Source: a virus
Taxonomy: Duplodnaviria; Heunggongvirae; Uroviricota; Caudoviricetes
Reading direction: 5' to 3' (one strand)
Virus record (IMG/VR): IMGVR_UViG_2534681899_000005
Length of the DNA: 13,486 bases
Shown: positions 344 through 13,486 of the stretch, piece by piece
Numbering within the stretch: position 1 is the stretch's first letter
Layout of the letters: every line of letters starts with the position of its first letter
The notes under the pieces: model-generated
Told to the model about the DNA's origin: nothing
The model's input: only the letters and a program-made list of their open reading frames with translations
Databases searched by the model: none
Made by a program: the position numbers and the translations under genes

Positions 344-541
344 TAACCTGTAAAGAATTTTCACACCTGTGTGTTTATACAGTCATACTCTCCTGTTTTG
401 CAGTCATTGCACCCATGATACACAGCCCCTAACCTGTCAAAATATTTTACTACCCCACCAATAATACGGCCCATACCTGTAAAATATTTTTACTACTACC
501 TGTCAAAATCTTTTACTACTACCTGTAAAAATATTTGACAC
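344..541. repeat. Iteron array: five direct 22-24-bp repeats, three contiguous; candidate replication origin
   Basis: Copies at 344-366, 430-453, 474-496, 497-519 and 520-541 share the core ACCTGT[A/C]AAAAT(A/C)TTTTACTAC; AT-rich context. Confidence 0.7.
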
Positions 542-1109
542 TAATAGATAAAGTAATAGACCACACAATAAATCCCCCCTAACCCCCCCAGGGGGAATGG
601 GGAGGGATCAGAGAGTGGGGAAGGTTTTCTAAGGGAAAAGCTTAACCCACAAATGAAAGCCTAAAGAGCATTAGTGACTCTTTAGGCAATCTGTGTGTGG
701 GTCACTCTGTGACTTTAGCTATACAGCTAAACCGACTACATCGGCCTGTGTGTGGGGTGACAATGTATTCCATACATGACACGTCACCCAATTGTGTGTG
801 GTCCGGCGAATGCGTCAGCATGAGGCCCACATGTGGACCGCTGCCGAAAGCTTGCCAGCGCCGGAAGGAGGCAGCAAAGAGTCTCCCGCGCTCATGTGTG
901 GGCGTATACGTAAGATATACATTCATAAATCCAATTCTAGGCACCTAAATGGCCTTCTGGCTGCATTAACCTGTGTGAGTAGTGCAATTGCATTACCTGA
1001 CCTCTAAATCGCGTTAGAATCGATTTTAGAGCGCTTAAGGCAAAAAGTGCCCTCCCTCCCTTGTGGGCTTGCTTGTACCTATAGCACACCTAAATGATAA
1101 TAATTCTCA

Positions 1110-1173: not shown

Positions 1174-1323
1174 GTGGAAATTACTGATGCAATAGCGATC
1201 ATCAACCTGGCTGTACTGTGGTGCGGTGTTGCCTACATAGCCGGAGTAACTGCAATCGACAATCTTGAAGAAAAAATGATAGATAAATACAAAAAGATTG
1301 TTGACAATTTGACGAATGTCTGA
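1174..1323 (+). CDS. Hypothetical small hydrophobic peptide (49 codons, GTG start)
   Basis: GGAGG at 1164-1168 lies 5 nt before GTG 1174. The translation VEITDAIAIINLAVLWCGVAYIAGVTAIDNLEEKMIDKYKKIVDNLTNV has one predicted TM helix and a charged tail. Below the ORF-track size cutoff and overlaps the downstream promoter. Confidence 0.2.
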   Translation: MEITDAIAIINLAVLWCGVAYIAGVTAIDNLEEKMIDKYKKIVDNLTNV

Positions 1324-1329
1324 TAAAAT
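1301..1329 (+). promoter_or_regulatory. Strong sigma70-type promoter for the rightward Rep operon (TTGACA-17-TAAAAT)
   Basis: -35 TTGACA at 1301-1306, 17-bp spacer, -10 TAAAAT at 1324-1329; 125 bp upstream of the first operon ATG; near-identical to the minus-strand promoter at 10859-10887. Confidence 0.55.
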
Positions 1330-1454: not shown

Positions 1455-1664
1455 ATGGCTAAAACCGGACCGATAAGCCAGCTTGTAAACTGGACTACTG
1501 ACGAAATCGTCGAGAACGTGCTTAAAGGTAACTTTCGAAAAACTTCCGTTTATGCATTTATTCGTAAACACAAAGGAGAATATCCACACATTGAAGCGGC
1601 AATAGAAAAACTTAACTTTATCCGTATTGAGCGTGAGCTGGAAAGATATAAACATCTACTTTGA
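1455..1664 (+). CDS. Small (69 aa) putative DNA-binding regulator
   Basis: ATG preceded by AGGAGA RBS; stop overlaps the TTG at 1661 of the next gene; basic, with an HTH-like segment (TTDEIVENVLKGNFRKTSVYAFIRKH). Family not recognised. Confidence 0.5.
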   Translation: MAKTGPISQLVNWTTDEIVENVLKGNFRKTSVYAFIRKHKGEYPHIEAAIEKLNFIRIERELERYKHLL

Positions 1665-1684
1665 TAAATAATTGTGAGGGAATT

Positions 1685-2590
1685 ATGGCAAACAATAAAC
1701 TGGGGGCACATTTCACCCCAATTTTTAAACGTTTCATCAAGTATAATTTTGAAAATCCAATTGCAAAAACTACAACAGGCAAAGAGAGATTTAATTTAAA
1801 TGCGACGGAATTGATAATTTACGGGGAAATGGTTGGCTTTCATTTAAACGGCAACGAAATATTCATCTCGGAGCAGACCTTAGCAGATGATTGGGATTTT
1901 TCAAGACCAACGATTATTAAAGCTATTAAATCTCTAGTAAATGCTGGGATTATTTCTAAAGATAACCGGAAAGGCAAATCTAACATTTACAAACTGTTAA
2001 TTACACCTGAGCAGTTTGATAAAATGTGCGATGAGCAGGGTATTAAAACCTTAGACAGTGTGGGAGACAGCAAAGAGGCACCTGCTACACAGGCCCAAGA
2101 TAATCAACAGGAAGCCCCAAAAAAAGCCGCACAGCAAGCTAAAAAGGCTAAAGTAGTGCAATTGCCTACCCAAGACACTAAAGCGCCTCAAATTAACGCT
2201 GTTAGTGACAAGCCACGCCGGGGCCGTCCTGTGAAAGATGCAACAGATGGAGGCTGGATCGCCCTGGGTGAGAGTGAGGCTAAAGGCATAATGCGATCAC
2301 TGTGGGAAAGCAAATACAAAGATTTAAACAAACGTCGCCCGATCCTTTTGTCAAAGATTCAGGAGGATTTTTACACCGCAGAAGAGGTAAGCCAACATAA
2401 AGGGAAAAGAGAGGGTGAAATCTGGAAACCGGAAGAATACTGGCATTTAACCAGACCTGTGTTTATTTTTGCAAATAAGCTTATTGGGATGGGATTTGAA
2501 ATATTGTTAGATAAAACCTGCGGAGATTATCCCGAAATATTGTGGAGAAATGTTAGAAAAAATAAAAAAGGCATTTTAGAGTTTAAATAA
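1685..2590 (+). CDS. Putative replication initiator / replisome-organiser-like protein (winged helix plus AT-hook)
   Basis: ATG 1685 with GAGGGA RBS (the track uses in-frame TTG 1661). N-terminal winged-helix-like region (..FISEQTLADDWDFSRPTIIKAIKSLVNAGIISKD..), P/Q/A/K-rich linker with AT-hook KPRRGRPVK, C-terminal domain. Iteron array lies about 1.1 kb upstream. Confidence 0.45.
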   Translation: MANNKLGAHFTPIFKRFIKYNFENPIAKTTTGKERFNLNATELIIYGEMVGFHLNGNEIFISEQTLADDWDFSRPTIIKAIKSLVNAGIISKDNRKGKSNIYKLLITPEQFDKMCDEQGIKTLDSVGDSKEAPATQAQDNQQEAPKKAAQQAKKAKVVQLPTQDTKAPQINAVSDKPRRGRPVKDATDGGWIALGESEAKGIMRSLWESKYKDLNKRRPILLSKIQEDFYTAEEVSQHKGKREGEIWKPEEYWHLTRPVFIFANKLIGMGFEILLDKTCGDYPEILWRNVRKNKKGILEFK

Positions 2591-3961: not shown

Positions 3962-4351
3962 ATGCCTATGAATATTGAAGAAATGATAGTTGAATTCGAA
4001 GAGGGTGATTTCCTGGAGGATGGGGAGTTTAGTTACTCCCGTTTTAAACAGGCGTTATTTAGCAGCGAGGATAAACCACACGTTAGTGATCTTAACGACG
4101 ATGATTTATGTCGCTGGGTATGCACCCGCTTATATGAGGATGGAAAATATACAGGCCAAAACTTTCCAAATCTCTATTTCAAAGCACAAACATTTGAGGA
4201 AGGGCAAAGAGTGAAAAACCTGGTCGATAAAATGCTTTCAGCCGGATATTTGCATAAAGAATTATTAAATCCTAAAGCTGAAAGCAAGCGCCATTATATT
4301 TTTGTGTGGACTATTGGCGATAAGTGTCCACTAAGACGCAAAGGAAAATGA
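3962..4351 (+). CDS. Hypothetical acidic protein (129 aa; probable start ATG 3968)
   Basis: GAGAGGA RBS upstream; sits two genes before the tape-measure-like gene, so a tail-assembly-chaperone-like role is possible but unproven. Confidence 0.5.
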   Translation: MPMNIEEMIVEFEEGDFLEDGEFSYSRFKQALFSSEDKPHVSDLNDDDLCRWVCTRLYEDGKYTGQNFPNLYFKAQTFEEGQRVKNLVDKMLSAGYLHKELLNPKAESKRHYIFVWTIGDKCPLRRKGK

Positions 4352-4352
4352 T

Positions 4353-4589
4353 ATGAATACCTACGAAAAGATTTATCAAAAACTGGTTAAGGACTCCGAA
4401 GAGACGCACGAAGGGGTGACAGTAGGTCACCTGCCAGAGGCAGCGAAAGAGGGGGCCACCATTATTAAAAGTTGCTCCCACACAGAAGGCCTCTCAATCG
4501 AAGAGCTTGCGGAGAAATATAATATTGATAAAGAGGCCCTGAAAAGGGCTATTTCATTATCAAAATCTTTAAGACAGGGCGAGGTGTAA
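4353..4589 (+). CDS. Hypothetical protein (78 aa)
   Basis: ATG 1 nt after the preceding stop, AAGGA RBS; stop 3 nt before the tape-measure-like ATG, so tightly coupled. Confidence 0.5.
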   Translation: MNTYEKIYQKLVKDSEETHEGVTVGHLPEAAKEGATIIKSCSHTEGLSIEELAEKYNIDKEALKRAISLSKSLRQGEV

Positions 4590-4592
4590 GAG

Positions 4593-6719
4593 ATGGCAAT
4601 GAAGGAAGTCGCCAGACTAACAAACGTTATTTACTGGGATTCTGATAAATCCAGCTGGCGAAAAGAAGTTAAACGGCTTGAGGATTATAAAAAATCCTGG
4701 AAGAAAGCCACCGACGATATAGCTAAAGCGGATTTTAAATCGAATCAGGCTGTGCTCAGAACACAAAGAACACGCGCTAAGGTGGAAGAGCAGATTGCCA
4801 GAGCACAGAAGAAACAACGTGCTCAGGCTGTCAGCCGTCTGACCGGGGGCAATAATCCGGAGCTCTCCTCTATGCGCAAGTTCTACCAACAACAAGCCAG
4901 AGAAGCCGCCAGACAACAAAAACTGTTAGATCGTAGTGTTGGAGATGTTCAGCACAGAAAAGCACGTGTAGGGGCCAACAGTGCACGAATCAGCAGCATG
5001 TTTGATGGCTCCCTGGTTGCTCAGTTCCAATCCAGAATTCAGAGAGTTAATGCTGATTATGCTAAAGGGGCTATTAACCTGCAGACCTATAATCAGAAAA
5101 TGGCCCGACTCAGAGCTGAAATGAAGATGGCAACAGCAGAGGCCGGAAAATTTCAGAGCAGACTAGACAAAGCTGCGGTAGCAGGATCTAAGCTGCATGA
5201 CAACCTGGGGAAACTCAACTCCACACTTGGCAAGATAGCTATTGGCCTTACTGCCGCTGGCTGGGGTGTTCAGCGTGCTGTTAGTGGTGCTATGGGTAGC
5301 CTTGCAGATCGCAACAGTGCCTACTTCGGTTTGATGGCACAGAACAAGGATGATAAAGCCAAGACTGATCAGCAGATGGCTTTTATCAAGAACACAGCCT
5401 ACACCTACGGGATGGATGAGCGGGAGATGCAAGGTGGCTACATGCGCTTTGCTGCAGCTACCCCCACCATGAAGGAATCTGATAAGCAGGCTCTTTTTGA
5501 GGCTATGGCTATTAAAGGTCGCTCAGTGGGTGCTACTGGCGAGCAACAGAACAGGGCGCTTGTTGCGGTCCAACAAATGGCTTCAAAGGGAAAAGTTATG
5601 GCAGAAGAGCTGCGGGGCCAACTGTCAGAAGCCTTTGCAGGCTCACAACAGGATTTTCAACAGGCCGCTATTGATGCCGGAATCATCAAGAATGCCCAGG
5701 AATTCGATAAAGCCCTTAAAGATGGCAAAATCACCCTGGATAAGCTTCTCCCTTCTTTGGTGAAAATCTGGGGTGCTGCAAAAGAAACTAAAGCTTTTGC
5801 TGAATCCATGAAACAGCCAGAAGTAGCAATGCAGCGCATGAAAAACAGCTTTAACGAGCTGGCGATCCAGTTTATGGGTGTTGTAGATCCTGCAGATGGC
5901 GTTATTAGCTTATCTGAATCTCTGATCTCCATCTTCGAAGACCTCACTACTGATATGGACGGCAGCGGGAGCGCGGCAAAACAGTTTGGTGAGGCAGTCG
6001 GTGCTGCCATGCGGGAGATCATGTATTGGGTAGGCTTCGCTAAGGGATATATTGAGGTCAAGGCTAAAGAGTTCGGCATGACCGGATCAGAGGTTGGCGA
6101 GCTTATCGGGAAACTGGTAGTCGGCTTAGCTGGTCTGAAAGTTATTACCACACTGCTTTCCCCTCTAACCGGATTTGTTTCACTTGTCACCCAACTGATT
6201 TCTCTGATAGGCAAGATTCCAGGTCTGGGCAATCTCGTTAAGGGTGCAGGTGGTGCAGTCGCTGGAAGCCCAACAACAGCATTAGCCGCTGGCAGTGCCG
6301 CAGGTGTGGGTGTTGGTGTCGCTGGCGCACTGGGCGCTAAGACGGTAGGTGAGAAGTTCAGAGGATGGATGCAAAGCAAGGCTGATCAGTTCGGGGAGTG
6401 GGCTAAATCTAAAGGCCTGCTTAGCGATGAACAGGACGCTATGACCAAACCGGGGGCCTATAACCATAGCTACATCAACAAGGGAGCTTCTTTTAATCCA
6501 TATCCAACCATTAGCCCATCACGTCCTACTCCTAGCACTGGTACGGCTATTCAGAATGGTGGCTATCAACCTGCTCAGGTTAATGTGGTGCCTCAAGGTG
6601 AGATTTCCGGCAAATGGGAGATAACCATCGATGAGGGGGGAATTGCCAGGGTGATTCAGAAGGAAGTCAGCGATCAGTTGGATTGGAAAGCCACACAGGA
6701 ATCTAATCAGCTTTTCTAA
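4593..6719 (+). CDS. Phage tail tape-measure-like protein (708 aa)
   Basis: GAGGTG RBS then ATG 4593. N-terminal about 200 aa is Q/R/A/K-rich and coiled-coil-like; central ..GATGEQQNRALVAVQQMASKGKVMAEELRGQLSEAFAG.. resembles the conserved tape-measure core; C-terminal Gly/Ala-rich hydrophobic segments; no Walker A or catalytic motif seen. Confidence 0.6.
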   Translation: MAMKEVARLTNVIYWDSDKSSWRKEVKRLEDYKKSWKKATDDIAKADFKSNQAVLRTQRTRAKVEEQIARAQKKQRAQAVSRLTGGNNPELSSMRKFYQQQAREAARQQKLLDRSVGDVQHRKARVGANSARISSMFDGSLVAQFQSRIQRVNADYAKGAINLQTYNQKMARLRAEMKMATAEAGKFQSRLDKAAVAGSKLHDNLGKLNSTLGKIAIGLTAAGWGVQRAVSGAMGSLADRNSAYFGLMAQNKDDKAKTDQQMAFIKNTAYTYGMDEREMQGGYMRFAAATPTMKESDKQALFEAMAIKGRSVGATGEQQNRALVAVQQMASKGKVMAEELRGQLSEAFAGSQQDFQQAAIDAGIIKNAQEFDKALKDGKITLDKLLPSLVKIWGAAKETKAFAESMKQPEVAMQRMKNSFNELAIQFMGVVDPADGVISLSESLISIFEDLTTDMDGSGSAAKQFGEAVGAAMREIMYWVGFAKGYIEVKAKEFGMTGSEVGELIGKLVVGLAGLKVITTLLSPLTGFVSLVTQLISLIGKIPGLGNLVKGAGGAVAGSPTTALAAGSAAGVGVGVAGALGAKTVGEKFRGWMQSKADQFGEWAKSKGLLSDEQDAMTKPGAYNHSYINKGASFNPYPTISPSRPTPSTGTAIQNGGYQPAQVNVVPQGEISGKWEITIDEGGIARVIQKEVSDQLDWKATQESNQLF

Positions 6720-6792: not shown

Positions 6793-6828
6793 GCAAGAAA
6801 AAAGCCCCTAAGTGTTAACAAAGGGGCT
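6793..6828 (-). terminator. Intrinsic terminator, clearest on the minus strand (possibly bidirectional)
   Basis: Stem AGCCCCT (6803-6809) / AGGGGCT (6822-6828) with a 12-nt loop. On the minus strand it is followed by TTTTTTCTT (complement of 6793-6802); on the plus strand only by CTCTTCTCC. Confidence 0.5.
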
Positions 6829-6849
6829 CTTCTCCGGTATCCTTTTGAT

Positions 6850-6964
6850 GCGGGGCGAACCTGCTAACAAAAATCAACCTCTCGCGAGACTAATGTTAGC
6901 AGGTTGCCGGAAGGTAAGTCAACTCCGGCCTATAAACCTTAAAGCGACTATAAAATCGCCCCGC
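6850..6964. other. Highly structured element with nested perfect inverted repeats (candidate structured RNA or protein-binding site)
   Basis: 9-bp outer stem GCGGGGCGA (6850-6858) / TCGCCCCGC (6956-6964) encloses a 10-bp stem CCTGCTAACA (6860-6869) / TGTTAGCAGG (6895-6904), whose loop holds the palindrome TCTCGCGAGA, plus hairpin GCCGGA / TCCGGC (6906-6929). Confidence 0.4.
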
Positions 6965-7246
6965 CAATTGTGATGATCCGACCTTTGAGGCGGGTCCGGT
7001 GCCCAGGGGGTGCAGTGATGCACAAACCAGGCAACGATAAACAGGCTAACAGTGATAGCGGCGCTCAATCAGCGCACTAAATCCTAACCAGTCCGGGAAA
7101 GAGGCTGGCTCTATCGACCGCTCATGCACGGGACAATGCATACCTGATAAAGGATTCTCACAAGGGACCAATCGCGAGAAAAGAAGTGGAAAGGGGCTGA
7201 TTTGTGGTGTATCACTACGGCCTCAAAAGAACACTATTGTCTTTTT

Positions 7247-7705
7247 TCAGCCTCTCCCCACATTTGACCAGTATTTGATTGCACCGATCAAATCATCATA
7301 GTGGCGCATTGCATCATTGAAGCCTTTATAGCTTGCCCATTGTGGGGAAACCTTGTTATTGCTGAATTGCCCACTAATCAGGATAGTCTCCAAAATGTCG
7401 GCGTATCGCTTGCCAATTCGCTTTCTGACGGCCTCAGAGCTCCCACCCTTTACGATTGCATTAATCAGGGCTTTTGTGTGTCTCAGGCTCTCATAGAGCA
7501 TTGCAGCGTGGGCAGATTCCATAAAGGAGCGCTTAGGCAGATCACCCCACCCCTCAGAATGAATTGCTGCCAGTGTGGCGTAATTCAGGCCGCTATAGTG
7601 TTTCCCGTCATCCCAGCCAACCGCTACACCTTCCATCTGTGAGAGCTCTTTATGCAGCTTATCCATCATGCGCTTGTCTATGGTGCAACGGACTTTCGGA
7701 CTCAT
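7247..7705 (-). CDS. Phage virion morphogenesis / head-tail joining protein (HK97 gp10 / Mu G-like), 152 aa
   Basis: Start overlaps the upstream stop by ATGA (7702-7705); motif ..NYATLAAIHSEGWGDLPKRSFMES.. resembles the Y-A-x-H-x-x-G...P-x-R-x-F signature of this family, recalled from memory. Confidence 0.4.
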   Translation of the reverse strand: MSPKVRCTIDKRMMDKLHKELSQMEGVAVGWDDGKHYSGLNYATLAAIHSEGWGDLPKRSFMESAHAAMLYESLRHTKALINAIVKGGSSEAVRKRIGKRYADILETILISGQFSNNKVSPQWASYKGFNDAMRHYDDLIGAIKYWSNVGRG

Positions 7706-8514
7706 TTGTTGATCTCCGTGATGTCATCGAGCAACATGTTGGCCTTATCAATCATCGTTTCGTGGAACTCATTCGACACAACAGACTTATCACCTGCGGC
7801 AATCTTTCCCGCTGCCTCTCCCTGTGCATATTCCCCGCGATGCTTAGCCCTGGTTGATTTCGTAGCAGCGTTGCCAGCGTTGCTACCCTCTTTAGCACTG
7901 TTAACAGCGCCCTTTTGCTGTGTTTTATTCACCTTCTTACTGTTAGTGAAAACTCCGGCATTTTCGACCATCTTCACCTTGAAGGTGCGGAATTCTTCAA
8001 AAGTGCAATCAATAGTGATGCAGTCACCAGAGGAAGAGCTACGCTTAACTTCACATTTCGTCATGATGAAGTTCTCAAGGAGTCCGGCATCTTCACTTAC
8101 CAGGCTAACTAGCTGGCGCTTGTCTCTCATTTCCATAAGTGCCTGAACAGCGGCAGCAGGGCGCATAGATTCACGGGGATTATCTGGATCAGTGTTCCGG
8201 TCGATGTAGTTCTCTTTCCGGATGATATGAGGGGAAGAGGTAATAATGCCCGTAAAGCTGACAGATTTATCTTTAATGACGGCATGGTCTGACATGGTGG
8301 TGCCATCCTCGACCGCATAGCTCGATTTCTCGACAGGGAACGAATAGCTGACATCAGAGATTGAGTCAAAGAAGATAGCCACGTTATCGGTATAGTTGAA
8401 GCCATCCATTATATTTTTGTTTTGTGAATATCCCCCACACATAACAGTGAATGCAGGAGATCTCGATTCAGCTTGTTTTGCAGCTGTCAGAGCATCACTA
8501 GCCATATTAAACAT
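7702..8514 (-). CDS. Hypothetical protein, possibly phage structural (270 aa)
   Basis: Long ORF in the capsid operon, translationally coupled to the next gene; C-terminal half is low-complexity K/A/G/N-rich; no family recognised. Confidence 0.45.
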   Translation of the reverse strand: MFNMASDALTAAKQAESRSPAFTVMCGGYSQNKNIMDGFNYTDNVAIFFDSISDVSYSFPVEKSSYAVEDGTTMSDHAVIKDKSVSFTGIITSSPHIIRKENYIDRNTDPDNPRESMRPAAAVQALMEMRDKRQLVSLVSEDAGLLENFIMTKCEVKRSSSSGDCITIDCTFEEFRTFKVKMVENAGVFTNSKKVNKTQQKGAVNSAKEGSNAGNAATKSTRAKHRGEYAQGEAAGKIAAGDKSVVSNEFHETMIDKANMLLDDITEINK

Positions 8515-8610: not shown

Positions 8611-8862
8611 TTATTTTGCAAAACGATTATGCGCATTCAGGGCTTTTTTGCGGTCCTGGGCTTGTTTGCGTGCAATAAAATGTTCGAAAGTCTCGGCCCA
8701 GGTGCATTTATTATATTCACGGTATTTATGCATAGCCTGGCGGCTAACGTCATAGCAGGCGGCAAATGTGGAGATACGCAGGAATTCCGGCAGATCCTCG
8801 TCATCGATATGGATAATATCAAAAGGCACGTCGTCACGGTCGCCGTATAAAACAATTTTCAT
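8611..8862 (-). CDS. Hypothetical small protein (83 aa from ATG; track ORF extends to GTG at 8871)
   Basis: GAGGTG RBS 6 nt before the ATG (complement of 8860-8862); acidic N-terminus, basic C-terminus with a possible HTH (FAACYDVSRQAMHKYRE). Confidence 0.4.
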   Translation of the reverse strand: MKIVLYGDRDDVPFDIIHIDDEDLPEFLRISTFAACYDVSRQAMHKYREYNKCTWAETFEHFIARKQAQDRKKALNAHNRFAK

Positions 8863-8975
8863 AAAAGACACCTCAAAAACTTAAGACGGGGATAATAAAA
8901 AAGGGAAGAGGGAAAGACCTATCCCCGATCTCTCACCTCTTCCCTTTGCTTTTATTTGGCCTTCGAAGAAGGACC

Positions 8976-10022
8976 TTATTTAGCCTTGGCTTTTGCCAGA
9001 GCAGCGGCGGCGGAGTTACTAACACTCACTTTAACCACAACTTCAGGCATCATGTTCATGAAAGCATAAGAGGATTCAATGAAGATTTCTCGTTTACCTC
9101 TGGACTCTTCCATATACATGAAAGCTTCACGTGCAGCGCCGTTTGCAAGCTTCAGGTTGCGAGCGCAAGGGCCGAAAAATTGAGTATAAACGCCCACCAT
9201 ATCGCCTAACGCATGCGGCTGGAACTGTGGGACCAGATAAGCAGTATTCTCTGGCAGACTATCCATTTGCACCACACGCAGAGCTAAGCCTGGAATGCGG
9301 AAAGTCGGGAAGCCCGGCAGAATATCCTCAGGGAACATCAGACCTTTATCGGTAATATTCTGATTGCCGAACAACAGCACTTTTCGCAACAGTTCATCAG
9401 TCTGAATTGCAGCAAAGAGTTCAGCACGGCAGAACAGGGTGAAACCACGCAGAGCACGAACGACACCACGCTGTTTAACCTTGCTCAGTGCAACCAGGTC
9501 CTGCAGTTGTTTGAGGATGTCTTGAGCTAGATCCACTTCAGAGGTGGACTGTTCCACGCCCAGCAGTTCGCACACATTCAGTTCTTTACCCTTGGTGAGG
9601 ATAATTTTGTTCTCAAAGAGAGCAAGCTGGCGTGCTTCTTCGTGGGTCTGGCGTAAGCCTTCACCCAACTGAATAACACGACGAGCGGTTACAGACTCTA
9701 AATTCTCTTCGGAATCTTTGCCCGGAACACGGATACCTTGCCAGTCAGAAGGATAAATAGCACTTGATGCGGCAGTGAATGCCATATCACCCGTGCCCGT
9801 TTCACGCTCATCTGCGGTAATGGTAGCCATCTGTTCACCGTAGCGCGGATACTGACCGAAAGCGGATTGTTTCACCTGGCGAACTTTGTCATATTCAAAT
9901 TTAAAGGTATTGCACAGAGCAGTAGTGTTGAAGATATCCATTGCTGAAATAATCTGGTTATCCAGCGGGATATCTTTAATCAGACCACACAGATCGCGAA
10001 CTTCGAATTCTTTCTTAGCCAT
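8976..10022 (-). CDS. Putative major capsid protein, lambda gpE-like (348 aa)
   Basis: ATG (complement of 10020-10022) with AAGGAGG RBS 6 nt upstream; the track ORF starts at in-frame TTG. Size and C-terminal segment (..KREIFIESSYAFMNMMPEVVVKV..) resemble lambda E-family capsid proteins as recalled; follows a ~110-aa gene as in lambda D-E. Not searched. Confidence 0.45.
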   Translation of the reverse strand: MAKKEFEVRDLCGLIKDIPLDNQIISAMDIFNTTALCNTFKFEYDKVRQVKQSAFGQYPRYGEQMATITADERETGTGDMAFTAASSAIYPSDWQGIRVPGKDSEENLESVTARRVIQLGEGLRQTHEEARQLALFENKIILTKGKELNVCELLGVEQSTSEVDLAQDILKQLQDLVALSKVKQRGVVRALRGFTLFCRAELFAAIQTDELLRKVLLFGNQNITDKGLMFPEDILPGFPTFRIPGLALRVVQMDSLPENTAYLVPQFQPHALGDMVGVYTQFFGPCARNLKLANGAAREAFMYMEESRGKREIFIESSYAFMNMMPEVVVKVSVSNSAAAALAKAKAK

Positions 10023-10033
10023 TTTCAACCTCC

Positions 10034-10369
10034 TTATTGTGCAACACGCAAATCGCCATTGCTGGCAGCAATAACAGCGGCTAAGCCGTCTTTATCCACG
10101 TAGGCCGGATTGATATAACAGCCCTTGTTGGCAACAACGATAAAAGCGTCGCCAACTTCAGCACGTTCTACAACCAGCAGCGGAGTTTTATCTGTGTGCG
10201 TTGCTTTAACGAAGGTCTCAACCTCGCCAGCCTCAGTTACCACAACAACAGTGCCAGCCGGAATCTCAGCTTTAACTTTGTTTTTAATTTCAACGTCGCG
10301 AATACTAAATTGCTCATCTGCGGCGTATGAAATGATGTGTCCGCGTGTGCGGATAGTCATATCTTTCAT
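10034..10369 (-). CDS. Putative head decoration protein, lambda gpD-like (111 aa)
   Basis: AGGTGA RBS then ATG (complement of 10367-10369); beta-rich small protein directly upstream of the capsid candidate; first gene after the promoter. Confidence 0.35.
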   Translation of the reverse strand: MKDMTIRTRGHIISYAADEQFSIRDVEIKNKVKAEIPAGTVVVVTEAGEVETFVKATHTDKTPLLVVERAEVGDAFIVVANKGCYINPAYVDKDGLAAVIAASNGDLRVAQ

Positions 10370-10701: not shown

Positions 10702-10850
10702 ATAACTAGCCCAATAGGAGAATTAATCGACCACTCAACGATGATCAGGGTAGTGTTATTTATAAGGCGGCACCGCTACCTGGTCGCCTTTACTTTGGAG
10801 GAAAATACGGCAAATCAAGATCTTCTCAAATGATATTGATTCCATACTAT

Positions 10851-10870
10851 ACTGTATATTATATCAGTAT
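10851..10870. promoter_or_regulatory. LexA-box-like palindrome (SOS operator candidate)
   Basis: Minus strand reads TACTGATATAATATACAGTA, which keeps CTG-N10-CAG with an AT-rich spacer (consensus TACTGTATATATATACAGTA); overlaps the -10 of the capsid-operon promoter. Confidence 0.5.
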
Positions 10871-10887
10871 TCTCTCAAATTGTCAAC
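10859..10887 (-). promoter_or_regulatory. Consensus sigma70 promoter for the leftward capsid operon (TTGACA-17-TATAAT)
   Basis: Minus strand reads gtgTTGACAatttgagagaatactgaTATAATat: -35 at 10882-10887, -10 at 10859-10864, exact 17-bp spacer. Confidence 0.6.
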
Positions 10888-11193
10888 ACCCTGATTATAT
10901 AAATTCTAATAATTAGCGTGGTAACTGTATTTTCAGACCTCTATCAATCCCATCAATACGTCACCCCACCCTTTAGATGCATACATCCGACCTACTTTGT
11001 AGGCTTGGCGTACTGCCAAGGTCGCAGCTATGCGACTCCTATCTATCACCACTTTATAAAGCTTGATAGATATCTTTTGATCAATATCAATGTTTTCCAG
11101 GGATTTACCCGGCTATAGTTCGAATCAAGGAAGGGGAGCATTGATAGCACCCAACCGAGCAAACAAATCAACTTCTCGCAAAAGGTGATAGTT

Positions 11194-12408: not shown

Positions 12409-13099
12409 GTTTTATGCCACAACCGCCCGGTTGACAGAGTAAGAGAGAGGGTGTAACCCTTTTTCGTAAAACCAATAAAATCAATAGCTTAGCTCAATTG
12501 GCCTTTTCTCTGTTTTTGTCAAATTTAACATGCCCTCAAAAACTGCAAAATCTGGCTGCAAGATTATCTGCAGCTGGATTTCTTACACCTCAATTTGTGG
12601 TATCACCCTGACTAGTTTGTGCATAAAATGAACAGTTTTTAACATTTCCTATTCACCTGGTAACCACACAAAAAGCTAAAAACGAGGCACAGATAATCTT
12701 AGAGGCCTGTTTTCTTGTTATCACTCTGGGAACGTCGTAGAAGTGATTTTGATGAAAGACGGCCTACCCTATTACACCCCCATTTTTTGTTATCACAATT
12801 GCATCCTGTGCGGTATATGACTATGTGCTGAAAGCGGTCTCAGGTGTGGGTGTCAGAAATATCCATTAGCGGTATTAATACCCGTCAGATGTTCGTCTGA
12901 GGTGCCAGGCAGGCGCTCCCCTACCTCCCCTTTTTCTTCTAACAATTCTCAAATATCACACCACTGCCCACCACGTTGCTATTATGTTAATTCTTAAGCT
13001 TTGCTTTATGTTGTGCACATTATTTATTCAGGTGCGTGTACGTAAATTCTGGGCCTCCTTATCACGATTTTTAAATCAGATTTTGTAGTGCGCTTTATT

Positions 13100-13391: not shown

Positions 13392-13486
13392 TTGGTGTGA
13401 ACAGTCTTTCATGTTCTTTATGTATCAGTTGTCCTGTGTGGTGATTTGGTGGACTGCCCCAGGGGCCATACTTATGATGCCCGGTC
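13392..13486. repeat. Right copy of 95-bp terminal direct repeat
   Basis: Exact match to 1-95 on the same strand. Confidence 0.9.

Follow-up and report, generated by a model that had tools for sequence, protein, structure and literature searches.

What a gene for a phage tail tape measure protein (TMP) is doing on a DNA of 13,486 nucleotides (called the window here, i.e., the whole stretch analysed) is the question raised by the open reading frame (ORF) at 4593..6719. The first-pass annotation had described a tape-measure-like protein at the end of a replication operon, preceded by two small genes in the position of tail assembly chaperones and without any further tail gene, and had suggested that it either substitutes into the tail of a helper phage or is a repurposed membrane or DNA-delivery protein. 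The features that our answer draws upon are the following.

432..542: iterons, four copies of 22 bp, ACCTGTCAAAATATTTTACTAC, start-to-start distances 43, 23 and 23 bp
831..891, plus strand: 61-nt non-coding element within a long hairpin, 82-87% identity to Vequintavirus genomes
1301..1329, plus strand: near-consensus sigma-70 promoter (11/12) with extended -10, heading the plus-strand array that ends at the TMP gene
1661..2590, plus strand: plasmid replication initiator (winged-helix, DnaD/O-like); PF13730 above cut-off, DnaD_N and several "replication initiation" PHROGs
3962..4351, plus strand: 129-aa ORF, found only in this plasmid family
4353..4589, plus strand: 78-aa ORF immediately preceding the TMP gene, weak helix-turn-helix (HTH) family matches
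4593..6719, plus strand: TMP, 708 aa, ATG start; Pfam, NCBIfam, PHROG and PDB matches
7247..7705, minus strand: homologue of PHROG-222 "tail completion or Neck1", 152 aa; phrog_222, E 7.9e-29
7702..8514, minus strand: tail tube initiator (Dit-like), 270 aa; PF21821, E 2.3e-25
8611..8871, minus strand: 86-aa ORF, flanked by the MCP and tube-initiator genes and retained across the family and in lineage L007
8976..10028, minus strand: major capsid protein (MCP) homologue, 350 aa; phrog_29, E 3e-21
10034..10369, minus strand: 111-aa ORF immediately 5' of the MCP gene, conserved with it in diverged relatives
10858..10886, minus strand: consensus sigma-70 promoter (12/12) with extended -10, heading the capsid/tube-initiator/Neck1 array
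13392..13486, no strand: terminal duplicate, exact copy of bases 1-95

The repetition of bases 1-95 at the end of the window is an overlap left by assembling a circular molecule, and the element itself therefore measures 13,391 bp. It is a complete, non-mobilizable iteron plasmid (13.4 kb) of Escherichia coli, in which the iterons are likely the origin of replication and the replication initiator lies upstream of the TMP gene on the same strand, as described before. The plasmid family was present in seven of 5,426 complete E. coli genomes, each time on a plasmid and at no chromosomal place, and all its complete records are circular plasmids. Since the five plasmid records in PLSDB are typed non-mobilizable, spread of the plasmid requires a vehicle. 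The family is widespread and size-constrained, with nearly all of the 120 best-scoring TMP relatives lying on contigs of 13.2-14.3 kb from E. coli and Shigella. One record of 39.6 kb (NZ_CP043822.1), considered as packaged trimers, was set aside; it holds about 2.9 head-to-tail copies, the first of them with degraded gene models, and is probably a long-read assembly artefact.

A phage-plasmid in the sense of a complete temperate phage can be ruled out, because the window does not hold the full set of virion and packaging genes. The largest ORFs encode 708, 350, 309 and 270 aa, none being big enough for a portal or large terminase, and neither portal nor terminase was found among the window ORFs by ORF inventory, Pfam and PHROGs. 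Matches to terminases or proteases were absent with Pfam, PHROGs and NCBIfam, and an integrase with Pfam and PHROGs; ORF inventory and family scans gave no tube, sheath, baseplate wedge or fibre genes. Moreover, a small terminase, a protease, a recognisable pac/cos site and ParA were not identified in the plasmid. Megablast of the whole window against phage genomes gave no match, and Rfam (gathering thresholds) and tRNA scans of the window found nothing. The plasmid family is not described in the literature collection searched.

The promoters of both operons correspond to the sigma-70 consensus, and thus no obvious helper-dependent switch is seen; their regions share a 54-nt sequence that is 74% complementary, i.e., an inverted repeat. 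The TMP gene is transcribed with the replication and regulatory genes, apart from the other structural genes. The 61-nt element at 831..891 matches Vequintavirus genomes only (119 phage records, all of them rV5-like as judged by size and name), with an identity far above the protein-level similarity to the same phages, and possibly represents an RNA, a packaging signal or a recognition signal.

The tape measure protein and its upstream neighbours

Judged from its sequence, the 708-aa protein is indeed a phage tail tape measure protein and is intact, and in this respect the original description has held. It matches the Pfam family TMP_3 (PF20155) with 51.1 bits (cut-off 41, E 1.8e-13) over aa 252-427, TIGR02675 (tape_meas_nterm) with 34.1 bits (cut-off 21.35), phrog_5255 "tail length tape measure protein" with E 9.5e-194, and the solved TMP chain of phage phiTE (9cuy_W) with E 1.1e-20. 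Its identity is 26-30% to the TMP of MaxTheCat (778 aa) and 24-27% to those of phiTE (811 aa) and A7_1 (807 aa). Aligned globally, it is collinear with three Vequintavirinae TMPs over the whole length, from residue 1 up to the C-terminal end, and falls 70-103 aa short of them, with all length differences located in the N-terminal and central parts. The Pfam domain, the domain order and invariant motifs are common to the plasmid protein and the Vequintavirinae TMPs (rV5-like bas57_0018; phiTE_228, PDB 9cuy_W), among them M-x-K-F-Y-Q-x-Q at aa 94-101 of the plasmid TMP and the TMP_3 core. A hydrophobic segment, a Gly/Ala-rich stretch and a conserved C-terminal block, which sits in the baseplate hub in phiTE (PMC11972413), are shared as well. 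By composition, aa 1-250 at the N-terminus of the plasmid TMP are enriched in charged, Gln and Ala residues. Hydropathy places hydrophobic segments at aa 501-540 and 562-582; Gly-rich C-proximal segments are also present, and aa 540-650 are hypervariable within the plasmid family.

The first-pass annotation had named homology to a non-tail family and truncation across homologues as findings that would speak against a tape measure. The protein matches TMP families, and it is intact with 699-716 aa in the 120 best-scoring relatives. Its dN/dS is 0.28-0.41, with a localised hypervariable segment. In one relative (CP148565.1) both the TMP open frame and the 129-aa ORF are shorter.

The genetic context of the TMP gene differs from that in Vequintavirinae, as it is neither preceded by a frameshifted chaperone pair nor followed by a tube initiator gene on the same strand. 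The 129-aa and 78-aa ORFs do precede it, as had been noted, directly and on the same strand with spacers of 1-3 nt. However, their proposed role as tail assembly chaperones found no support when the chaperone-fold and frameshift checks suggested for them were carried out. A frameshift scan with a positive phage control found no slippery heptamer at this ORF pair, and the 78-aa ORF occupies the +1 frame, which is open upstream of it for 18 nt only (from 4335), whereas the phage chaperone pair used as control shows T_TTT_TTC and an open -1 frame. Against profiles of Vequintavirinae chaperones, both ORFs gave hhalign probabilities below 1%. BLASTP and hhalign of every small plasmid ORF against these chaperones were negative, as were PDB sequence searches. 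The AF2 single-sequence model of the 129-aa ORF (pLDDT 48) was too poor for a fold search. For the 78-aa ORF, the AF2 model shows four helices (pLDDT 62), and the top Foldseek matches are all HTH domains, none of them significant; it is probably a small HTH protein and not a chaperone. The chaperone of PLE, a satellite of Vibrio cholerae, is recognisable by structure only (PMC12987554).

Capsid and tail homologues on the minus strand

The initial statement that no other tail gene is present proved wrong, since the minus strand encodes a tube initiator and a PHROG-222 homologue beside an MCP homologue. Consequently, of the tube, sheath and baseplate partners that had been reported missing, tube and sheath are indeed absent, but the baseplate is represented by the Dit-like tube initiator. 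This protein shares 51% identity with bas57_0019, the rV5-like "tail tube initiator", and matches the tube initiator chain of phiTE (9cuy_K, E 9.9e-35) as well as Phi92 gp135; in phiTE, the tube initiator forms the first hexameric ring of the baseplate hub (PMC11972413). Its stop overlaps the start of the PHROG-222 gene by 4 nt. The PHROG-222 homologue is 43-45% identical to MaxTheCat bas57_0011 and 49% to phiTE_219. Neither it nor phiTE_219 matches any PDB chain, and because it is absent from the modelled virion proteins of phiTE, its "tail" role derives from the family label.

The MCP homologue aligns over the full length with the MCP of MaxTheCat at 24.7% identity (pairwise E 1.8e-13) and weakly matches the phiTE MCP (9cul_G). 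This relationship emerged in the direct pairwise comparison only, as tblastn against phages at 1e-5 gave no match. Among 1.84 billion representatives, just 29 clusters reach E 0.001 with the MCP homologue, and its nearest relatives reside in similar small elements. The 111-aa ORF upstream of it takes the position in which the phage carries the head decoration gene and shows a dN/dS of 0.06 and 46% identity in L007. As a decoration protein it was rejected, since hhalign of the family alignment against the phage decoration protein was not significant. The 86-aa ORF is 34% identical in L007 and is annotated as a 252-nt CDS in relatives.

All structural genes are under strong purifying selection, with dN/dS values of 0-0.03 for the tube initiator, 0-0.02 for the PHROG-222 homologue and 0.05-0.13 for the MCP homologue in addition to the TMP value given above. 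Furthermore, the order of 111-aa ORF, MCP, small ORF and tube initiator is kept in two diverged lineages (L007/L008-type), in L007 together with a Neck1-like gene, at an MCP identity of only 29-40%. The MCPs of these diverged relatives carry PF03864, the capsid family of the PISP satellites, and the MCP homologue of the window falls below PF03864 detection. A convergent ORF of 545 aa or more in L008 had no PHROG match.

Possible roles of the plasmid in phage infection

Substitution of the element's TMP into a helper tail, one of the two ideas put forward initially, is now the best-supported reading, as an intact Vequintavirinae-type TMP occurs together with structural homologues from the same phages. 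We consider it reasonably probable that the plasmid is a satellite of virulent rV5-like myoviruses (Vequintavirinae, ~135 kb) and that the hybrid tails it builds are slightly shorter. While the helper infects the cell, the plasmid would produce its TMP together with its tube initiator, and the tube and sheath subunits of the helper would polymerise around the core that these two specify. Assistance probably comes from the chaperones of the helper, since no chaperone is detectable in the plasmid and its TMP has preserved motifs found to be invariant among helper TMPs. With 708 versus 778 aa and ~1.5 Å per residue, tails of ~106 versus 117 nm can be expected, i.e., the hybrid tail would be about 10 nm shorter than that of the helper. 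The capsid homologue of the plasmid may provide or remodel a head fitting the small genome. Helper dependence, incorporation of the TMP into tails, tail shortening and packaging are what we infer from several lines of evidence. The TMP is full-length, collinear with Vequintavirinae TMPs and shorter; three more structural homologues of the same phages are present (51%, 43-49% and 25% identity), all under purifying selection, and gene order is kept in both diverged lineages. The family is widespread, size-constrained, plasmid-only and non-mobilizable, the 61-nt element matches Vequintavirus genomes exclusively, and the GC content is near that of the phage (44.4% vs 43.6%). Finally, PLE is a direct experimental precedent, and plasmid-borne satellites exist with PISP and cf-PISP. 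Given that the plasmid proteins share only 24-51% identity with those of known Vequintavirinae, a relative not yet sampled could be the actual helper.

Several observations count against a satellite. A scan of IMG/VR with MCP-derived patterns had no match, and a small terminase, protease, pac/cos site and chaperone were not detected in the plasmid. The lack of an obvious helper-dependent switch and the origin of the PHROG-222 tail role in a family label belong here as well. The first of these would also suit the main rival, an assembly-poisoning defence, in which the MCP, TMP, tube initiator and Neck1-like protein act as dominant-negative decoys that abort Vequintavirus virions and the plasmid remains unpackaged. 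The four homologues are nucleating or length-setting parts, where substoichiometric poisoning works, the consensus host-type promoters could permit expression before or early in infection, packaging genes were not found, and interference with tail assembly occurs among known defences (Tab, PMC10884400; Tai, PMC11364771; Rta, PMC12987554). However, the known tail-interference proteins are not homologous to structural proteins, PADLOC defence models found only weak HTH noise in the plasmid, and purifying selection on whole proteins with a conserved TMP length fits working structural parts at least as well. Packaging also accounts better for a non-mobilizable plasmid of tightly constrained size that has spread through numerous strain backgrounds of E. 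coli and Shigella. Altogether, we hold poisoning as the plasmid's role to be rather unlikely, although by analogy with PLE it could coexist with satellite transfer.

The other early idea, a TMP homologue repurposed outside the tail, e.g., serving in the membrane to deliver plasmid DNA or in exclusion, could draw on the two hydrophobic segments and on the co-transcription with replication and regulatory genes instead of the other structural genes. Yet the helper TMP has a comparable hydrophobic segment, collinear conservation begins with the first residues and continues into the C-terminal block located in the baseplate hub in phiTE, and a cognate tube initiator is co-encoded, so that this idea is unsupported and appears very unlikely. 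Even less credible, and largely refuted, is a decaying remnant of a phage or phage-plasmid with functionless leftover genes: the structural gene set is incomplete and CP148565.1 has the shortened frames mentioned above, but the 120 best-scoring TMP homologues are full length, every structural gene has a dN/dS well under 1, gene order persists at low MCP identity and the element size is uniform.

Returning to the satellite, the chances appear evenly balanced that the family forms an undescribed class in E. coli and Shigella, namely an autonomous plasmid that parasitises virulent Vequintavirus phages and supplies a capsid protein and a tail core, with the 61-nt element maybe as shared recognition signal. 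The plasmid would contribute tape measure, tube initiator and Neck1-like protein to this core, and the helper the packaging enzymes, portal, tube, sheath, fibres and everything else. The rV5-like phages are common E. coli phages; among them are isolates that infect O157:H7 and phages from a K-12 reference collection. A plasmid hijacking or sabotaging the assembly of such phages would have consequences for phage efficacy and carry DNA between strains of E. coli and Shigella. If the satellite reading is true, no strictly lytic coliphage would have had a satellite described before this one. Because rV5-like phages grow on E. coli K-12 and the plasmid measures just 13.4 kb, TMP incorporation, tail-length control and capsid re-sizing are directly testable.

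Comparison with known satellites

A satellite TMP acting in helper tails had initially been called a strategy not established for satellites, which is superseded by the chimeric tails of PLE (PMC12987554) and the TMP genes of EPIP (PMC12822802). PISP and cf-PISP of Vibrio crassostreae (Nat Commun 2026, PMC13230959), whose authors found relatives in Vibrio only, resemble the plasmid as small circular extrachromosomal elements (11-16 kb) with replication and capsid genes and a proposed spread in helper-derived particles. However, they are described as having a small terminase, protease and parA, none of which was detected in the plasmid, and cf-PISP additionally a portal, adaptor and others, whereas the TMP, tube initiator and Neck1-like gene are present in the plasmid only and PISP/cf-PISP have no tail genes. 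EPIP of Mycolicibacterium aichiense (bioRxiv 2025, PMC12822802) shares a TMP and an MCP gene with the plasmid, and altered tail lengths have been observed for it. Unlike the plasmid, it is an actinobacterial, integrase-bearing element with a prophage helper of non-contractile tail, it encodes a small terminase, adaptor, stopper and scaffold, and its tails are longer and variable, whereas shorter ones are predicted for the plasmid. SaPIbov5 with Ccm (PMC8569155), which redirects capsid size or shape, also has a satellite-borne diverged homologue of the helper MCP. This chromosomal island of Staphylococcus has a siphovirus as helper and lacks tail genes; an analogy to the plasmid would concern the MCP gene alone.

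The closest functional parallel may be PLE (Mathur, Boyd et al., Nature 2026, PMC12987554), which exploits the lytic myovirus ICP1 in V. cholerae. Its TMP, chaperone and baseplate hub are 20, 20 and 41% identical to those of the helper; satellite TMP and hub replace the helper proteins in virions, and the TMP, being 95 aa shorter, leads to tails that are 10 nm shorter (PMC12987554). PLE and, by our reading, the plasmid are both tied to a large virulent myovirus. Both have an own TMP of ~20-30% identity to the helper's and of reduced length (by 95 aa in PLE11, ~70 aa in the plasmid), both have a better-conserved baseplate-core protein (BhuB in PLE, 41%; the tube initiator in the plasmid, 51%), and both are without tube, sheath and fibre genes. 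For PLE, chimeric tails were shown by experiment, whereas the plasmid counterpart is deduced from genes. PLE is an integrated chromosomal island with an integrase, uses the helper capsid protein with its scaffold TcaP and has a recognisable chaperone, whereas the plasmid is an autonomous iteron replicon, encodes an MCP homologue and has no chaperone that we found. If the satellite reading is true, satellite tape measures and hybrid tails would not be confined to the Vibrio PLEs, and the plasmid would offer the second demonstrated case of chimeric-tail piracy. Hybrid tails would then have arisen independently in an unrelated plasmid-borne element with its own capsid gene, in which the baseplate protein replaced would be the tube initiator instead of the hub as in PLE, and to which the PHROG-222 Neck1-like protein is an addition relative to PLE.

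The tape measure gene and its phage counterparts

The gene at 4593-6719 (+), which begins with ATG and encodes 708 aa, matches Pfam TMP_3 with 51.1 bits over aa 252-427 (curated cut-off 41), TIGR02675 above cut-off, phrog_5255 "tail length tape measure protein" with an E-value of 9.5e-194 together with nine more tape measure PHROGs, and the cryo-EM-modelled tape measure protein (TMP) of Pectobacterium phage phiTE (9cuy_W, E 1.1e-20). Because of these four lines of matches, the first-pass annotation was right to call the gene tape-measure-like. Residues 1-250 are rich in charged residues, Gln and Ala and are followed by the conserved core, hydrophobic segments (aa 501-540 and 562-582) and a C-terminal block, which, judged from the sequence, is the usual build for a TMP. 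Among phage TMPs, the nearest belong to rV5-like Escherichia myoviruses. In global alignments with the TMPs of the rV5-like E. coli phage MaxTheCat (778 aa) and of two further Vequintavirinae, phiTE (811 aa) and A7_1 (807 aa), identity is 24-30%, and the plasmid-encoded protein is collinear with all three, beginning at the N-terminus and extending into the C-terminal block. It is 70-103 aa shorter, a deficit confined to the N-terminal and central portions of the alignment. The four proteins do not differ in the motif M-x-K-F-Y-Q-x-Q (aa 94-101) or in much of the TMP_3 core, which would point to a continued need to contact helper-type partners. With the textbook value of ~1.5 Å per residue, a tail with a 708-aa instead of a 778-aa TMP is predicted to be ~10 nm shorter.

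In a large protein collection, 427 proteins are related to the TMP (E <= 1e-5); the best 120 of them have 699-716 aa and come nearly all from E. coli/Shigella contigs of 13.2-14.3 kb. Among these 120, positions 1-525 and 651-708 are ~90-100% conserved. Residues ~540-650 (window ~6210-6540) are hypervariable, identity to the window sequence going down to 41-57% in the family, and the pattern is one of allele-like replacement, not decay. Since escape mutations of the Vibrio cholerae phage ICP1 to Rta, the inhibitor of its satellite PLE11, are concentrated within a discrete stretch of 73 TMP residues (PMC12987554), aa 540-650 could be a conflict interface.

Further structural homologues and the upstream ORFs

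The element carries two convergent gene arrays, each with a near-consensus sigma-70 promoter at its head:

1301-1329, plus strand: sigma-70 promoter of the plus-strand array, inside the shared 54-nt sequence at 1287-1340
3962-4351, plus strand: 129-aa ORF
4353-4589, plus strand: 78-aa ORF
6795-7240: convergent intergenic region (530 nt), with a strong minus-strand terminator (hairpin + T6) at ~6830-6795
7247-7705, minus strand: PHROG-222 "tail completion or Neck1" protein, E 7.9e-29
7702-8514, minus strand: Dit-like protein, PF21821, E 2.3e-25
8976-10028, minus strand: major capsid protein (MCP) homologue, phrog_29, E 3e-21
10034-10369, minus strand: 111-aa ORF upstream of the MCP gene, at the position of the phage head decoration gene
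10886-10858, minus strand: sigma-70 promoter of the minus-strand array, inside the shared 54-nt sequence at 10847-10900

The plus-strand array begins with a 69-aa ORF, continues with rep and a number of small ORFs, some of them HTH-like, and ends with the TMP gene; the minus-strand array runs from the 111-aa ORF via the MCP homologue, an 86-aa ORF and the Dit-like gene to the PHROG-222 gene. The near-identity of both promoters (TTGACAATTTGA...TGnTAnAAT) suggests that the TMP-containing and the capsid-containing operons are under common control, presumably via a shared repressor. Downstream of the Neck1-like gene lie ~400 nt of GC-rich, structured-looking sequence devoid of ORFs, which may be a non-coding RNA.

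The TMP gene had been described as the only tail gene of the element, which has to be revised in view of the Dit-like tube initiator and the PHROG-222 homologue on the minus strand. The Dit-like protein shares 51% identity with the rV5-like "tail tube initiator" and has matches in 376 phage records; further matches are the phiTE tube initiator chain 9cuy_K (E 9.9e-35) and Phi92 gp135. In phiTE, the tube initiator forms the first hexameric hub ring, the base for tube growth (PMC11972413). The PHROG-222 protein shares 43-49% identity with bas57_0011 of MaxTheCat and phiTE_219, whose gene is kept between head and sheath genes in Vequintavirinae; no PDB chain matches either the plasmid protein or phiTE_219, so that a virion location of the plasmid protein is putative and taken from the family label. 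The MCP homologue shares 24.7% identity with the rV5-like MCP over the full length (pairwise E 1.8e-13). The 111-aa ORF is conserved in all diverged relatives, and its resemblance to the phage decoration protein, with the same N-terminal offset, is faint and non-significant. No ORF in the window reaches the size of a portal or large terminase gene, and the family scan gave no match there to tube, sheath, wedge, fibre, protease or small terminase. Computed against two relatives, dN/dS is 0-0.02 for the PHROG-222 gene, 0-0.03 for the tube initiator, 0.05-0.13 for the MCP, 0.06 for the 111-aa ORF and 0.28-0.41 for the whole TMP gene.

HMMER, run exhaustively over 1.84 billion representatives, returned only 29 MCP-related clusters, and the three nearest relatives (43%, 31% and 29% identity by HMMER) are all located on short metagenomic contigs. 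By tblastn, MCP identity is 40% for contig L007 (ERR11504048) and 29% for L008 (SRR33454221), both of which have the order small ORF, MCP, small ORF, Dit-like gene, with a Neck1-like gene also in L007. Contig L009 (SRR29211247; MCP 29% by HMMER) has the small ORF and the MCP gene ordered as in the window. Therefore, the capsid/tube-initiator module is older than the E. coli plasmid family. L008 furthermore contains a convergent ORF of >545 aa at the expected TMP place, which has no PHROG match.

The two small genes preceding the TMP gene had been placed in the position of tail assembly chaperones. In MaxTheCat, the corresponding pair bears the canonical chaperone signature, a T_TTT_TTC heptamer with the -1 frame of the downstream gene open across it. 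The plasmid pair contains no X_XXY_YYZ heptamer; the 78-aa ORF lies in the +1 frame, with just 18 nt open upstream. BLASTP and hhalign (probability <1%) show no similarity to the Vequintavirinae chaperones for this ORF, for the 129-aa ORF or for the remaining small ORFs of the plasmid. Family matches of the 78-aa ORF are weak and to HTH proteins only, and its AF2 model (four helices, pLDDT 62) has exclusively HTH domains as Foldseek neighbours, all non-significant. With no frameshift signal, no chaperone similarity and HTH-only matches, the chaperone reading is unsupported for the 78-aa ORF. Homologues of the 129-aa ORF occur inside the plasmid family only, and its model (pLDDT 48) is unusable.

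Plasmid replicon and DNA-level links to rV5-like phages

The first 95 bases of the window equal the last 95, and thus the molecule is circular with 13,391 bp. It shares 91-96% identity across 79-92% of its length with five E. coli plasmids, all typed non-mobilizable by PLSDB; four have 13.2-13.7 kb, and the fifth (NZ_CP043822.1, 39,610 bp) comprises ~2.9 head-to-tail copies of the element, with broken gene models in the first copy, and is probably a long-read assembly artefact, not a biological trimer. The TMP gene is present in 7 of 5,426 complete E. coli genomes and plasmid-located every time. The replication and non-coding features are:

432-542: iterons, four 22-bp direct repeats, likely origin of replication
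572-598 and 659-687: two terminator-like hairpins just downstream of the iterons
831-891: non-coding element of 61 nt within a long hairpin (811-910)
1661-2590: Rep initiator, winged-helix

The 61-nt element recurs in 119 phage records at 82-87% identity, all of them rV5-like (e.g., MaxTheCat 131730-131790), and is unannotated in most of these genomes. At the protein level, the structural genes are far less similar than that. Its stems are conserved and its loop is variable. Against bacterial small SRP (4.5S) RNA it gives a full-length, weak match below threshold (20.8 bits, E 0.16; gathering score 40), and its motif CCGGAAGGAGGCAGC resembles 4.5S RNA domain IV. The element may act as a small RNA or serve plasmid and helper alike as a signal for recognition or packaging. 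GC content is 44.4% in the plasmid versus 43.6% in the phage. Some of the 119 matches are "Campylobacter phage" records (e.g., MG065653, MG065654, MG065635) of rV5-like size. With their rV5-like genes and a 61-nt element, both at the identity seen in E. coli phages, they seem to be Vequintavirus sequences that were mislabelled or are contaminants. Moreover, a palindrome-containing 51-mer (window 4400-4450; 78%, with an inverted copy at phage 93115-93058) and a 24-mer (12934-12957; 23/24) both match one unannotated 2.5-kb region of MaxTheCat (90.1-92.6 kb), with E-values of 2e-4 and 0.003 against this one genome, which may be chance.

A putative plasmid-borne satellite

On the best-supported reading, Vequintavirus phages are the helpers of the element, which would be a plasmid-borne satellite. 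The plasmid would provide a satellite-specific tail core of TMP and tube initiator, perhaps with the PHROG-222 protein, as well as the capsid protein, and the helper would give tube, sheath, baseplate, fibres, portal and packaging enzymes. The data establish what the genes are, their homology and conservation, and the type of replicon; all else, including encapsidation, helper dependence and tail shortening, is putative and inferred from these. The main rival is a pure defence by poisoning of phage assembly, which could coexist with transfer. A decay remnant is poorly supported, as the best 120 of the 427 TMP homologues are full length and dN/dS of the structural genes is 0-0.41; the TMP gene is thus not the truncated remnant that the first-pass annotation had considered. 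Its other suggestion, a TMP repurposed outside the tail, is likewise poorly supported.

The satellite reading is modelled on the experimentally established case of PLE and ICP1. The PLE TMP, chaperone and hub are 20, 20 and 41% identical to their ICP1 counterparts, the TMP is 95 aa shorter and leads to tails 10 nm shorter, TMP and hub are incorporated while those of the helper are excluded, and deletion of tmp lowers transduction by 96-99.9% (PMC12987554). Since satellite-encoded TMPs are known from PLE (PMC12987554), from the Mycolicibacterium satellites EPIP (PMC12822802) and from putative cf-PICI, the earlier remark that such a strategy is not established for satellites is out of date. Neither this E. 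coli plasmid family nor any satellite of Vequintavirinae turned up in the literature searched. The Vibrio satellite-plasmids PISP/cf-PISP (PMC13230959) are plasmid-borne like the element, but lack tail genes. Compared with PLE, PISP, cf-PICI and P4, the element has a distinct combination of features: an autonomous plasmid with its own MCP homologue, TMP, tube initiator and Neck1-like gene, free of terminase and portal, and with a virulent coliphage as likely helper.
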